64,000 nucleotides of DNA from Alphaproteobacteria bacterium (GTDB lineage Bacteria > Pseudomonadota > Alphaproteobacteria > UBA9219), in the NCBI GenBank assembly GCA_028708035.1, contig JAQVZU010000001.1, positions 3,275 to 67,274 on the forward strand, given 5' to 3'. The first letter of the stretch is position 1; the number at the start of each line of letters is the position of its first letter. The notes below the pieces were generated by a model. The model ran no database searches. It was not told the DNA's origin and worked only from the letters and a program-made list of their open reading frames with translations. Shown here in pieces: positions 16,281 to 20,824 of the stretch. The position numbers and the translations under genes were made by a program.

Positions 16281-17102
16281 ATGGCTGAGGATTCCGACAA
16301 GTCGCGGATGCAATCGCTGCTTATGGCGTTCCGCCAGCTTGGCTTGCCGTTGCTTCAAGCCGTTAGCGAAGCGCAAAATAAATCCGAGATTTCTCAGGAA
16401 TTTTTGAATACCGAAGCGCTTAGTCCTCTCATCGACAGCACCGTCATGTTAAGCCAAAAGTTGGCGTCGCAAATTGGCGCGAGCGAGGATAAGGTCGATG
16501 CTTGGGTCCGCTGGGCTTTGGCCGGAACTGCCGCTCAGGTCGTCGGTGCGTCATATAAAATGGCAGGGCGTGTGCTAACCGAAGAAGAGGCCGATCAGAT
16601 AGCCTCGATTGCCATCGGGTTGCAAGGCAAGTTCAAAGCGCAAATTCCTCCCGGACAGGAAAACATTCCGAACACCATAGCGACCTTCCGCGCCAAGATG
16701 CTTGAAGCGATGGTCCCTGTGGTCGGTGCCGTCGCTCAATATTCGTTTGGCCGCGCCGAGCACGCACTTTTGGCCGAGGTCGCCGAAAAGCTTGTCAAAA
16801 CAGCCGATCAGGTCACGCGCGCGCTTGCGCCCACCGGGGCATCGCCCGAGGAATGGCGGCTTCTTTGCTGGTACGTGCTGAAAGCTGCGGGGCAGATCTA
16901 CATGGAATCCCACTTTGCCGAGGCCGACCGTCTTCTTTATATGCCCGCCGAAGAACGCTCAGCCTATTTTGCGGAGCACGGCCAAATCGTTCCGATGCAG
17001 GAAGTCTGGCAAGCCTTCAATCAGCGAATGGCCATGTTGGCGACGCTGGCCGCCTATCTTGAGGTTCCCGAGACGGCGAAGCTAGATTCCGAGGGATGGT
17101 GA
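16281..17102 (+). CDS. all-alpha cytoplasmic protein of unknown function (273 aa)
   Basis: No TM segment or signal peptide. It precedes the VirB1-like transglycosylase by a 7-nt overlap, so they are probably co-transcribed. Confidence 0.5.
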   Translation: MAEDSDKSRMQSLLMAFRQLGLPLLQAVSEAQNKSEISQEFLNTEALSPLIDSTVMLSQKLASQIGASEDKVDAWVRWALAGTAAQVVGASYKMAGRVLTEEEADQIASIAIGLQGKFKAQIPPGQENIPNTIATFRAKMLEAMVPVVGAVAQYSFGRAEHALLAEVAEKLVKTADQVTRALAPTGASPEEWRLLCWYVLKAAGQIYMESHFAEADRLLYMPAEERSAYFAEHGQIVPMQEVWQAFNQRMAMLATLAAYLEVPETAKLDSEGW

Positions 17103-17557
17103 TGCTCACAGCACAAGCTTTTGCAGCATGTATTATTCTTGCGGCGAACACCTACAAAGTTCCGCCTGCGGTGATGATTGGCATCATGCATGTCGAAGGC
17201 GGGCGTGTTGGCCAGGAAGCGGGGCCGAATTTCAATGGCACGTACGATCTTGGGCCTATGCAGGTCAATACGCGTTGGATTCCGACGCTTCAGCGCGTTT
17301 GGCGGGTGGATGCTTCGACAGCTCGCTCCTGGGTGCGCGACAATGGATGCGTAAACGTGCACGTGGCGGCATGGATTTTGCGCCAGAAGCTTGACGGCAC
17401 CGGGAGCCTATGGGGAGCTATAGCCGCCTATCACTCATTAACTCCCAGCAAGGGCATCCCTTATGCGAACAAAGTCATTGCCGCAATGGACCGCAAGGGA
17501 CTCGTCAAACACGACGCCCCGTTATATCCACCAGTTGCGCGATATGCGCAGAAATGA
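17096..17557 (+). CDS. VirB1/IagB-like lytic transglycosylase (SLT domain)
   Basis: Signal peptide plus MHVEGG...NFNGTYDLGPMQVN, matching the E-S/G-G...N.NG..D.GLMQIN lytic transglycosylase signature of type IV secretion-associated enzymes. Confidence 0.7.
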   Translation: MVMLTAQAFAACIILAANTYKVPPAVMIGIMHVEGGRVGQEAGPNFNGTYDLGPMQVNTRWIPTLQRVWRVDASTARSWVRDNGCVNVHVAAWILRQKLDGTGSLWGAIAAYHSLTPSKGIPYANKVIAAMDRKGLVKHDAPLYPPVARYAQK

Positions 17558-17565
17558 GGGTTTTA

Positions 17566-17843
17566 TCATGGGGGGATGGCTGCAAAAGGTCAACAAGGCG
17601 CTGACGCCAAAGCTGACGAACCAGTTAACGAAACCACAACAAAAAAGGAACGCCCCCATTCAGGGGAAAAAAGCCGCGAACCTGCCCCCGGCAACCATTA
17701 TATATGGAATTGGCGCTGGATTATTATTCGTCCATTCGTTATCTCTGATGGCGCGTGGAATATGGTTTTCAGGCATCGTGGTGCTGCTTTTGGGGGGAGT
17801 GCTGACGGGATTTGCATTACACCATCTTAAACATCAGGATTGA
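17566..17843 (+). CDS. small two-TM membrane protein (~92 aa)
   Basis: From internal Met MGGWLQKVNK: Lys/Gln-rich N-terminus then two hydrophobic helices; located between the SLT gene and dotD. Confidence 0.4.
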
Positions 17844-17899
17844 ACAGAATTTGAGTGTAAGCTATTAGAGTACAAGCGCGAATCATTCGGAACCGCAAA

Positions 17900-18424: not shown

Positions 18425-19334
18425 GAAAACGAAACGCCGCTTGGGCGCGGTTGTACTGGCGATGGTTCTCGCTTGGTATTCCATACCCGCTTTTGCCCAG
18501 AGCGCAGGCGTCACTGAGGCCGGATCCGGGGCCGGAAGCGGAGACTTGTTCGGTTCTATCAGTATTTTCGACAAGGACGCCATATCTCCGCCGCCCCCTA
18601 TCCTTGAAGACCTTCAAAACCAGTCTGCGCCTGAAGAAGACGATGAGACGGCAAAGGCTACGCTTGGCCTTCAAATCCGTGCCGATGCCATTAAAGAAGC
18701 GGCTCTGTCATATGGGGCACGCGGCGGACTCGCGCATAGAACATTTGAGATCCAGCGCCGTCTGGCTGAATACGACACCAGCATGTCAAAGGCGTTCAAT
18801 TTTAAACGCCTCTTGATTGCCGCTCCGTCGGGTTTGTTGATTGAGCCGCCCGTTATCACTGAAGGCTTGCGCGCCGTCATTGTTAGTTCGGGGGGGCAAT
18901 CTGCCGCCGTGGCCGATCGCATTTACCGTATCAACCGCATCGCCAGAATCGTCACTGCAGCCCGGGATTGGCGTTTGTATTTGGAGCGCGATTGGGGCTT
19001 TGTCGATCCGCCAGCGACGATTCTGCTTCCGAAAACGGAAGAAGAAAAAGCCGCCTGGAAAGCCTTCGTCAAGCAAGGCTGGGAAGAAGGCATGAAACAG
19101 GCTGAAGAGACATTTGAAGCCGACATTGATCGCATGGTGAACGATTACACGGGCATGATCCGTTACCGCGAGTTGCTGGCGCAAAAGATGATTTCTCCGC
19201 CCTTCGCCGCTGCCGATGACCGTGGCGTGACTGGCGGCGGGAGCGAAATGCGCATCGGTGACCGCGGTGTCGTGATCATGGGCCAGTCTTCTCTCATTCC
19301 TCAAAGCAACATATGGACACCGGTCAATCAGTAA
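18399..19334 (+). CDS. dotC: type IVB secretion system protein DotC-like (secreted, ~311 aa)
   Basis: Signal peptide (KKTKRRLGAVVLAMVLAWYSIPAFA). Size and position between dotD and dotB match the Legionella dotDCB operon. Sequence-level identity could not be verified from memory. Confidence 0.45.
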   Translation: MLLLTNPGKKTKRRLGAVVLAMVLAWYSIPAFAQSAGVTEAGSGAGSGDLFGSISIFDKDAISPPPPILEDLQNQSAPEEDDETAKATLGLQIRADAIKEAALSYGARGGLAHRTFEIQRRLAEYDTSMSKAFNFKRLLIAAPSGLLIEPPVITEGLRAVIVSSGGQSAAVADRIYRINRIARIVTAARDWRLYLERDWGFVDPPATILLPKTEEEKAAWKAFVKQGWEEGMKQAEETFEADIDRMVNDYTGMIRYRELLAQKMISPPFAAADDRGVTGGGSEMRIGDRGVVIMGQSSLIPQSNIWTPVNQ

Positions 19335-20530
19335 TCGATAAGGCCGAAGCTTTGGCCGCCAAGATCGGCACATGGCCGAATGAGCCGATGCGTCTTGGCG
19401 AAGAGCATATTGAAGATTTGCTCTTATGGTGCGTCGCCCAGAACGCAAGCGACACGACTCTGCAAACAGATCGTCCCGTTTACATCGAAGTCGATGGCAT
19501 ACTGTTCCCGGTCACGCGTCGATACTTGGACAGCGCCGATATAGCCAACGCTCTTGAGAAGATTTATGGTCCCGATGCCTTGGCAAAGCTCGCCTCTGGC
19601 CGCGACCTCGACCTCTCTTTCGAGGTTCGCCCCGACCGCAATACGCGCCGGAGGTTTCGCGTCAACATCACGGCCATTCTCAGCAAAGGCCGTGACAGCG
19701 TACAGATTACGTTGCGCACATTGCCAAATTTGCCGCCGACGCTCCAAGAGTTGAACGTCGAAAAAAAACTGGTCGAAAATTGGGCTCCTCGCCAAGGACT
19801 GATTCTGGTCACGGGACCGACTGGCAGCGGCAAAACTACATTGCTCGCCGCAGGTTGCCGCATGTTGATCGAGCGCGAGCAAGGTTGCGGCAAAATGCTG
19901 ACCTACGAAGCCCCAATCGAATACGTCTACGATGCGATCGTAGGGCCCCGTTCCCTCGTCGCGCAATCCGAGATTCCGCGCCATCTGCCATCTTTCGCCG
20001 CAGGTATTCGCAATGCCCTGCGCCGCAAGCCCAACATCGTGTTGGTCGGCGAAGCCCGTGATCGTGAAACCGTCTCCGCGGCAGTCGAGGCGGGGCAAAC
20101 AGGCCATTTGGTTTTTTCGACCGTCCACACCATCGGAGTTGCGGCGACCGTCCGGCGCATGGTCAGCGTTTTCGACCCGGTTGAAAGAACGGAGCGCGCT
20201 TATGCGATGATGGAAACACTGCGTATGATAGTAACTCAAGCGCTTGTGCCGAGGGTGGGCGGCGGACGCATTGGCCTGCGCGAATTTTTGGTGTTCGACG
20301 AGCGCGTGCGCGAAAAGCTGCTCGATCTTCCCGTTGAGAAATGGACCGGTGAAACACGCCGCTTGCTGTTCAAGTACGGCCAGACAATGGAAGACACGGC
20401 AGGAAAGGCCTACAAAGACGGTCTAATAGATCGCCGCACGCTGATATTCCTGACAAAGGGGTTTTCTGACGAGGAACAGGAAGCTGCTTTTGAGGAAATC
20501 GAAAGAGATGGAGCCGCCGATGAAACTTAA
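19313..20530 (+). CDS. dotB: type IVB secretion ATPase DotB (PilT/VirB11-family hexameric ATPase)
   Basis: Walker A GPTGSGKTT; Asp box and His box (GEARDRET...LVFSTVHT) of the PilT/GspE family; 405 aa; immediately downstream of dotD/dotC. Confidence 0.75.
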   Translation: MDTGQSVIDKAEALAAKIGTWPNEPMRLGEEHIEDLLLWCVAQNASDTTLQTDRPVYIEVDGILFPVTRRYLDSADIANALEKIYGPDALAKLASGRDLDLSFEVRPDRNTRRRFRVNITAILSKGRDSVQITLRTLPNLPPTLQELNVEKKLVENWAPRQGLILVTGPTGSGKTTLLAAGCRMLIEREQGCGKMLTYEAPIEYVYDAIVGPRSLVAQSEIPRHLPSFAAGIRNALRRKPNIVLVGEARDRETVSAAVEAGQTGHLVFSTVHTIGVAATVRRMVSVFDPVERTERAYAMMETLRMIVTQALVPRVGGGRIGLREFLVFDERVREKLLDLPVEKWTGETRRLLFKYGQTMEDTAGKAYKDGLIDRRTLIFLTKGFSDEEQEAAFEEIERDGAADET

Positions 20531-20548
20531 AATCCTGAGGCCTAAGTC

Positions 20549-20824
20549 ATGGATGTAGAGGAAATACACTGGCGCAATTCGCAAAAACCGGCCCGTTTAT
20601 TCATGGTGGATGCGCGCGCCTTCAGTGCAATCTTTCTCTTCCTGATTCACGCGCGCCTGTGGACGTTCGCTCTCGCCGCAATGGTCATGTTTATCTTCTG
20701 GGTGTTTGAACGCCGAGGCTTGACGTTTGAAGCTGCCTGTCGCGCGCTGCGCTGCTGGATTCTCGGTCGCCGTCGCCCTGCTAGCTTGGCAAAGCACCGC
20801 CGCCATTGGATTGACTTCGGCTAG
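20549..20824 (+). CDS. icmT: IcmT-like small inner-membrane T4BSS protein
   Basis: 91 aa. N-terminal HWRNSQKPARLFMVDARA followed by one TM helix and a basic tail, resembling the Legionella IcmT/TraK(IncI) family; directly after dotB. Confidence 0.5.
   Translation: MDVEEIHWRNSQKPARLFMVDARAFSAIFLFLIHARLWTFALAAMVMFIFWVFERRGLTFEAACRALRCWILGRRRPASLAKHRRHWIDFG

Follow-up and report, generated by a model that had tools for sequence, protein, structure and literature searches.

A probable fragmented Dot/Icm-type secretion system on the chromosome of a Micavibrio-related alphaproteobacterium

Results

We analysed a stretch of 64,000 nucleotides from contig JAQVZU010000001.1 (assembly GCA_028708035.1, Alphaproteobacteria bacterium), below called the window, in which positions 16281-20824 of the plus strand hold seven intact, tightly packed open reading frames (ORFs) arranged head to tail. 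In order, they encode a protein called u273 here, an SLT-domain lytic transglycosylase, a small protein with two transmembrane segments (2-TM protein), DotD, DotC, DotB and IcmT. The block is probably one transcription unit of a functional, chromosomal, vertically inherited, relaxase-independent and unusually fragmented Dot/Icm-type type IV secretion system (T4SS; mating-pair formation class I, MPF-I) in an uncultured Micavibrio-related alphaproteobacterium. Profile scans were made with Pfam on about 60 of the window ORFs and with NCBIfam on about 20 of these. The E-values of the Dot/Icm assignments in the block range from 1e-25 to 1e-119, far beyond chance, and the identities of DotD, DotC, DotB and IcmT proposed in an earlier sequence-only reading were borne out by matches to hidden Markov models and PDB chains.

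DotD (17900-18424, plus strand) is an outer-membrane lipoprotein of the DotD/TraH type with the lipobox LLAGC. It scored 92.9 bits against PF16816 (cut-off 27), 73 bits against the Legionella DotD chain 6x62_Dd of a cryo-EM structure in PDB, and 95.6 bits against NCBIfam NF033882, which is under the equivalog cut-off of 140. The ORF of the outer-membrane core protein DotC/TraI opens at 18285, and its conserved start is at 18399 (18399-19334, plus strand). It scored 244.5 bits against PF16932 (cut-off 26.1) and 137 bits against the PDB DotC chain 6x62_AC, and read from 18399 it has 311 amino acids and is 100% identical to an NCBI protein from a metagenome-assembled genome (MAG). It carries an ordinary signal peptide, with a cleavage site of the AFA-Q type, and no lipobox. 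In most relatives, too, DotC has an ordinary signal peptide and lacks a lipobox; Legionella DotC is classed as a lipoprotein in a review (PMC11338181). DotB (19313-20530, plus strand) is a PilT-like hexameric ATPase of the DotB/TraJ type with the Walker A motif GPTGSGKT. The DotB model TIGR02524 gave 398 bits, compared with 244 for plasmid TraJ and 229 for PilT, and since this score is below the trusted cut-off of 463, the protein is a divergent member of the DotB family. The score was 358 bits for 6geb (L. pneumophila DotB), 206 for Yersinia DotB and 159 for PilT, and the alignment with 6geb runs over 369 residues ungapped at 46% identity, the identity being 66% to Micavibrio DotB and 35-42% to plasmid homologs. 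The last gene encodes the small inner-membrane protein IcmT/TraK (20549-20824, plus strand; NF038220, 89 bits, cut-off 40).

Upstream of dotD, the SLT-domain gene (17096-17557, plus strand; TrbN/VirB1-like) overlaps u273 by 7 nucleotides, and its earlier assignment as a lytic transglycosylase was upheld by PF01464 (26.6 bits, cut-off 21.3); the best NCBIfam model, conjugal TrbN NF010463, gave 85 bits, under its cut-off of 246. The motif MHVEGG has a glutamate at the usual catalytic position, the gene lies within a T4SS operon, and it is conserved at the same position with 48-89% identity in 64 loci. By these features the protein is predicted to be a T4SS-associated specialised lytic transglycosylase of the VirB1/TrbN type. 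The 2-TM protein (17568-17843, plus strand, from the conserved start at 17568; 91 amino acids) has a basic N-terminus and two transmembrane helices predicted from hydropathy. No family in Pfam or NCBIfam matched it, and in the nearer clade 23 loci have a homolog of 82-105 amino acids at this place. The first gene of the unit, u273 (16281-17102, plus strand; 273 amino acids), encodes a conserved cytoplasmic all-alpha protein without signal peptide or transmembrane segment; no other protein of the unit is as well conserved. No relative was detectable by sequence profile or fold, and the family is small: a 90%-clustered database contains 341 homologs, all annotated as 'hypothetical', and a set of 1.84 billion representatives yields 350 clusters. 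Micavibrio-type homologs of u273 (L032, L042, L048 and others; relatives' loci are designated by L numbers) have a long Pro/Ala-rich C-terminal extension with a conserved NPMSFFK-like end, which is absent in the clade of the window.

A strong terminator-like hairpin (16082-16101) closes the gene preceding the block, another (20936-20952) lies directly 3' of icmT, and a sigma-70-like promoter match (TTCACG-17-TATAGT, 16186-16214, plus strand) stands 5' of u273. Promoter- and terminator-like matches across the region were not above the shuffled expectation, and because such signals occur at the shuffle level, only their placement counts. The overlapping or abutting genes, the bracketing hairpins and the promoter-like match together fit one seven-gene operon, and the suggestion that the upstream genes are co-transcribed with the dot genes is thus likely to be right. 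A 27-nucleotide terminator-like element (GCCATGGCGAAGGTGGCTTTTGTTTTC and variants, 70-78% identity) occurs in three copies in the window (3150-3176, 13217-13243 and 20939-20965), the last of which is the hairpin after icmT.

DotB was sought in one genome per GTDB species and was found in 80 species-level genomes, including the cultured Micavibrio aeruginosavorus. The closest matches (70-90% identity) come from MAGs labelled Alphaproteobacteria, Rhodospirillaceae or Bdellovibrionales, the last label being explained by the NCBI practice of filing Micavibrio under Bdellovibrionales. About 50 further matches (61-68% identity) include many Micavibrio MAGs and the complete M. aeruginosavorus HCB189 chromosome (66%). 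Judged by the similarity of these type IVB secretion system (T4BSS) proteins, the organism of the window would be an alphaproteobacterium of a Micavibrio-related lineage. The order DotD-DotC-DotB-IcmT is found in nearly all of the 80 loci. Of the 61 loci whose upstream flank is long enough, 52 carry a merged u273/SLT family member on that side. Only the three closest long loci have htpG upstream as in the window, and the genes downstream of the window block are not shared by the relatives' loci. The conserved gene order with differing neighbours indicates that the unit is kept while its surroundings change.

After icmT, 53 of the 67 relatives with enough flank carry a PilL/TcpQ-like gene, followed in 12-13 of these 53 by R64-type thin-pilus genes (PilN secretin, PilO). 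One locus, L002, also has a T2SSE ATPase and a T2SSF protein after icmT, in the same layout as on plasmid pND6-2. Pilus-type regions were located at 11991-19976 in L002, at 11697-13088 in L032 and at 23821-33790 in L082. None of the relatives' PilL/TcpQ or thin-pilus genes is found in the window. Missing from it too is a thioredoxin-like gene of 293 amino acids that lies in the operon of 44 relatives and that presumably recalls R64 TrbB.

Compared with the closest genomes, the nonsynonymous rate (dN) was far below the synonymous rate (dS) for every gene tested. The dN/dS values were 0.03-0.09 for u273, 0.02-0.09 for the SLT gene, 0.03-0.08 for DotB, 0.06-0.13 for DotC, 0.08-0.18 for DotD, 0.10-0.15 for IcmT, 0.07 for DotI (see below) and 0.067 for htpG, and they are rough values because dS was saturated (>1). 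The genes for u273, the SLT enzyme and DotB are under purifying selection as strong as that on htpG, and in the comparison with L004 the amino acid identity was 80% for HtpG and 81% for both DotB and u273. The low dN together with an identity that tracks htpG is consistent with a functional, vertically inherited unit rather than with one that is decaying or was recently transferred.

A second dot locus lies in the window about 32 kb from the block. Two tandem DotI/IcmL genes on the minus strand were found there by tblastn with proteins of plasmid pND6-2. The first copy (52716-53357, minus strand) encodes a VirB8-like inner-membrane component (PF11393, 153 bits; NF038072, 162.6 bits, cut-off 175), in line with the description of DotI as a VirB8-like part (PMC6112013), and the second is a paralog (52051-52719, minus strand; PF11393, 128 bits). 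In Legionella, DotJ sits beside DotI, and the second copy in the window takes the same position. The first gene of this unit, u164 (53375-53869, minus strand), has a Cys-rich C-terminus and a weak GcrA-like helix-turn-helix match (17 bits in Pfam, 21.8 bits in NCBIfam) and may encode a regulator. It lies 5' of DotI in all eight loci of L084-L091 that reach upstream and in L095 (49-62% identity), and the tandem dotI pair is kept in L084, L086-L092 and L095. The unit is wedged between nusB/ribH/ribB/argH on one side and a helix-turn-helix gene, u558 (described below), a phasin gene and rplS/trmD on the other. The rest of the apparatus had been thought absent from the window; this was right for icmB and dotA, which were not found, and wrong for the two dotI/icmL genes with u164 at 52051-53869. 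No homolog of IcmS/W/Q/R/X, DotA, DotK or IcmF/DotU was recognised in the sequence examined.

The other components were seen in relatives. Metagenome contigs with DotI of 58-72% identity and an 890-kb scaffold have the order u164-DotI-DotI-DotH (PF12293)-DotG (TrbI; NF033900)-x-TraQ-like-x-IcmJ/DotN-IcmB (997 amino acids), and on the 890-kb scaffold DotM (PF23127)-x-DotL-like type IV coupling protein (T4CP) come after IcmB. Coupling-complex genes include DotN in L089 (NF038221, 77 bits) and DotM_C with a TraG-D_C-type protein of 845 amino acids in L095, and a DotL homolog is found at the edge of L017. The clusters are flanked by aconitase or lipopolysaccharide glycosyltransferase genes, and no relaxase is present within the stretch examined in L089 and L095. 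In M. aeruginosavorus, DotI and DotH start about 8 kb downstream of icmT, past flagellin and flgK. In L086 and L088, the closest contigs (DotI 69-80% identity) long enough to tell, the dotI pair runs into nusB or its neighbour, as in the window; the remaining three of these closest contigs end too early to show this.

The scattering goes further in the genomes JAMFSS01 and JAGWIK01, whose DotB is 83-84% identical to that of the window. In both, a lone icmB lies on another contig between phaR and housekeeping genes and encodes a full-length IcmB of 996-997 amino acids, which agrees with the earlier view that the system is dispersed over the chromosome. JBFWTA01 and JBEOJY01 are intermediate, one having IcmB-DotM-x only and the other a solo icmB and a solo dotM 7.5 kb apart. 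Solo icmB genes were located at 10001-12994 in L093, 10001-12991 in L094 and 10001-13006 in L098, and the solo dotM at 20517-21746 in L098. Between genomes, the layout of the system thus varies from a single cluster to genes dispersed one by one, with the window at the scattered end. In L093 and L094 icmB adjoins phaR near ftsK and a PhaC-like hydrolase gene. The same ftsK and PhaC-like hydrolase neighbourhood occurs at 40938-46918 of the window, without icmB.

The block is flanked by housekeeping genes, htpG (11212-13065) on one side and dnaK, motB and motA (22913-26767) on the other, which confirms the chromosomal setting assumed earlier. Farther away in the window are leuS, a mur/ftsW cluster, ftsK, argH, ribBH, nusB, trmD, rplS and ffh. 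The GC content is 53.2% in the window and 55.2% in the block, below the previous estimate of about 57%, and the GC content at third codon positions (GC3) of the dot genes, 0.54-0.65, is within or just under the range of the housekeeping genes. No relaxase or T4CP, which together would have told against the sequence-only reading, was found among the window ORFs scanned, and next to the block there is no relaxase, NikA, T4CP, primase or partition gene. The traH-I-J-K order typical of a conjugative region is present; a relaxase or oriT beside traH, and a mobile replicon or att-bounded island, are not.

A tyrosine integrase gene (9389-10624) adjoins a tRNA-Ser gene (10780-10872, minus strand) on its 3' side, about 5.6 kb upstream of the block. 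The integrase faces a low-GC (46%) stretch of 2.6 kb (6760-9388) that holds only small ORFs, and the region 6760-10962 is probably a decayed integrated element. Because the integrase is on the far side of the 3' end of tRNA-Ser, any island runs away from the block. The island was rejected as the carrier of the block by this orientation, by the intervening htpG and by the window repeat search, in which no att repeat enclosing the block was found. A 21-nucleotide copy of the tRNA-Ser 5' end lies at 10942-10962. The order integrase...rlpA-dacC-(209-aa ORF)-holB resembles M. aeruginosavorus GMV_1260-1266 (ARL-13 supplementary table), which has a thymidylate kinase at the corresponding position.

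Four proteins encoded beside the two dot loci deserve mention. Between htpG and the operon lie the genes of two secreted proteins, u274 (13109-13933, plus strand) and u523 (14487-16058, plus strand), the latter with a signal peptide. Their position is kept in the closest genomes and they evolve fast, with 42-63% identity where DotB has 81-92%. Upstream of the unit, u523 is present in 7-9 close loci at 25-63% identity. It has no match in Pfam, NCBIfam or PDB, and its membership in the system is uncertain. A proposal that u523 is IcmX-like was left unsupported by the lack of a PDB match. The other two are HExxH proteins: the gene of u604 (21025-22839, plus strand) closely follows icmT, and that of u558 (55654-57330, minus strand) lies near the dotI unit. 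They are paralogs of about 600 amino acids (36% identity over 375 amino acids, E 5e-58) with HELGH/HEIGH motifs and an N-terminal hydrophobic helix, and their GC content (47.5% and 49%) and GC3 are lower than those of their neighbours. Neither has a match in Pfam, NCBIfam or PDB or a homolog in the relatives' loci examined, and AlphaFold2 models from a two-sequence alignment had a mean confidence (pLDDT) of 33. By their position beside the two loci, which is their link to the system, both are candidate cargo or accessory factors.

Discussion

Our results point to a working machine of which the window holds two parts. Several observations weigh against this. The scores of DotB, DotD and DotI are under the NCBIfam equivalog cut-offs, which were set on Legionellales-type proteins, the saturation of dS affects every selection estimate, and the negative result for relaxases covers the scanned ORFs of the 64-kb window, so that one may be encoded elsewhere in the genome. 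No homolog of IcmB, DotH, DotG, DotM, DotL or DotA lies anywhere in the window, and neither a substrate nor a secretion signal nor an IcmS/IcmW adaptor came to light. As only 64 kb of the genome was examined and IcmB, DotH, DotG, DotL, DotM and DotA are not in it, we infer from the sister genomes and from purifying selection that the machine is complete in this organism. By analogy with its homologs, it would translocate proteins into a contacted cell.

Assuming that the parts work as their Legionella homologs do, DotC and DotD would build the outer-membrane cap together with a DotH encoded elsewhere, and the SLT enzyme would make way for assembly by opening the peptidoglycan. The inner membrane would contain IcmT and the 2-TM protein. 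DotB would act as a hexameric ATPase in the cytoplasm, docking on the DotO/IcmB ATPase to energise or open the channel, and u273 may serve in the cytoplasm as a lineage-specific partner of either DotB or the inner-membrane complex. The other parts would be scattered, with u164-dotI-dotI 32 kb away and icmB, dotH, dotG, dotN, dotM and dotL elsewhere, as in the sister genomes.

A functional machine derived from a T4BSS could also have been turned to another job, such as DNA release, uptake or chromosomal transfer, or the assembly or anchoring of a type IVb pilus for attachment. That most relatives have PilL/TcpQ and type IVb pilus genes in tight linkage, and that no effector was identified here, would suit this explanation, and T4SSs are described as functionally versatile in a passage of PMC12857230. 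However, the window keeps the dot genes without adjacent pilus genes, its DotB is nearest to the DotB of the Legionella effector system, and the relatives carry DotL, DotM and DotN, which in Legionella recruit protein substrates (PMC11338181). We therefore regard another job as unlikely. A decaying remnant of a once-complete T4BSS, no longer a machine, is more unlikely still. It would account for the extreme scattering, for the absence here of the thin-pilus and thioredoxin-like genes of the relatives and for the lack of icmB, dotH and dotG in 64 kb, but all ORFs are intact, dN/dS is 0.02-0.25 with u273, SLT and DotB constrained like htpG, L086 and L088 keep the scattered layout with u164-dotI-dotI beside nusB, and sister MAGs keep an IcmB of full length. 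An integrated IncI/IncM-like conjugative element (an integrative and conjugative element or plasmid remnant) transferring DNA is very improbable, as the gene order exactly that of plasmid traH-I-J-K, the pND6-2-like PilL/TcpQ and thin-pilus genes after icmT in relatives and the integrase with tRNA-Ser upstream are outweighed by the lack of relaxase, NikA, T4CP, primase or partition gene beside the block, by htpG between the block and a tRNA whose island is oriented away, by housekeeping flanks, native composition and identity that tracks htpG, by a best plasmid DotC of only 35-41% identity, and by the occurrence of apparatus genes singly between housekeeping genes in sister MAGs, an arrangement incompatible with a self-transmissible element.

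If the block belongs to a functional Dot/Icm-type T4SS, its use can be considered in the light of the life style of the cultured relative. It is conceivable, although we would put it forward only tentatively, that the machine is the contact-dependent injector of Micavibrio-like epibiotic predators and delivers effectors, perhaps including the HExxH proteins beside both loci, into bacterial prey and not into eukaryotic hosts. Among type IVB systems it would then be the first with bacteria as targets, and it would account for the way in which prey is 'leeched' from outside. The effector type IVB system is regarded as a hallmark of intracellular Gammaproteobacteria (Legionella, Coxiella, Rickettsiella, Piscirickettsia), and here the machinery is clade-wide in alphaproteobacteria, chromosomal and under selection. 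The cultured member of the clade eats bacteria, and its own genome paper, on strain ARL-13, stated that there was no evidence for a type IV secretion system (PMC3189940). The system is thus a concrete and testable candidate for the mechanism of epibiotic predation, and if uncultured relatives live with protists instead, it would be a pointer to a hidden host association. The sequence-only reading had inferred an undescribed host-associated lineage, which was not borne out; the 80 species-level carriers include M. aeruginosavorus, an obligate epibiotic predator of bacteria, and a pT4SSi system had already been noted in Micavibrionales (PMC9418006). It had further placed T4BSSs in low-GC alphaproteobacterial endosymbionts; we found no paper describing these, and the effector-type T4BSS is treated in review as a gammaproteobacterial hallmark (PMC11338181).

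The fragmentation also has consequences for detection. The TXSScan rule asks for IcmB and at least six accessory genes within 30 genes. It recognises L095 and L089 and passes over L093, L094 and L098, where icmB is solo, as well as the window, in which IcmB is missing and the five Dot/Icm family genes recognised are split between two loci 32 kb apart. Such detection relies on genes lying together, and scattered systems are known to escape it; the outcome bears on detection, not on function. With fragmentation down to single genes, detectors based on co-localisation will undercount systems of this kind.

Comparison with known systems

Dot/Icm-type systems without relaxase in Micavibrionales were already mentioned in passing in 2022. 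Needham et al. 2022 (PMC9418006) used MacSyFinder and called pT4SSi, without a relaxase and with IcmB plus at least six accessory genes, in seven marine genomes of Micavibrionales. These calls, made in one sentence without gene-level description, concern a system of this kind in this broad lineage, and the co-localisation rule behind them would miss genomes whose icmB lies farther than 30 genes from the other parts. In reviews of predation and of T4BSSs the Micavibrio-type system is unmentioned.

With the Legionella Dot/Icm system the window shares homologs of DotD, DotC, DotB, IcmT and DotI, and the relatives add homologs of DotH, DotG, DotN, DotO/IcmB, DotM and DotL. Both systems are chromosomal, have no relaxase that was seen, and are split over more than one locus. 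In contrast to the intracellular gammaproteobacterium, the carrier here belongs to an alphaproteobacterial lineage near a bacterial predator; dotDCB are joined to icmT and preceded by u273, the SLT gene and the 2-TM gene, DotC lacks a lipobox, and the fragmentation reaches solo genes. The block had been said to follow the Legionella region-I order, which is mistaken, as the order is that of plasmid traHIJK. In Legionella, dotDCB sit near icmW. There icmT opens another locus, icmTSRQPO, far from icmW; in the Paris strain of L. pneumophila, IcmT (Lpp0507) is beside IcmS/R/Q/DotM/DotL, and IcmW (Lpp2742) is elsewhere (PMC6761968).

A scattered machine has a parallel in another alphaproteobacterial group. 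The rvh system of Rickettsiales is a chromosomal T4SS in several scattered loci with duplicated components, including the VirB8-like one. Unlike the system described here, it is of class IVA/MPF-T, consists of different proteins and belongs to obligate intracellular bacteria.

In gene order the block matches the I-type plasmids, in which DotD-DotC-DotB-IcmT correspond to traH-traI-traJ-traK (Bosea pBSY19_1, Pseudomonas pND6-2, IncM pCTX-M3 and the IncI1 R64 type). An SLT enzyme is associated with the system in both, and the PilL/TcpQ-PilN-PilO-ATPase-T2SSF genes that follow in relatives, though absent from the window, are arranged as on pND6-2. On pCTX-M3, nikA-nikB precede traH, whereas the window block is preceded by u273, the SLT gene and the 2-TM gene. 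Unlike the plasmids, the block is chromosomal and vertically inherited and has no nikA/nikB relaxase, primase, ParM or replication genes. Identity to homologs on these plasmids is 29-48% across the four proteins (DotC 39-41%, DotB 35-42%), and a plasmid origin by close similarity was rejected because even the best of 3759 plasmid records reaches only 35-41% identity to DotC. In our reading, the system is an old, chromosomal branch of the MPF-I lineage that has retained the plasmid-like order of this sub-operon.

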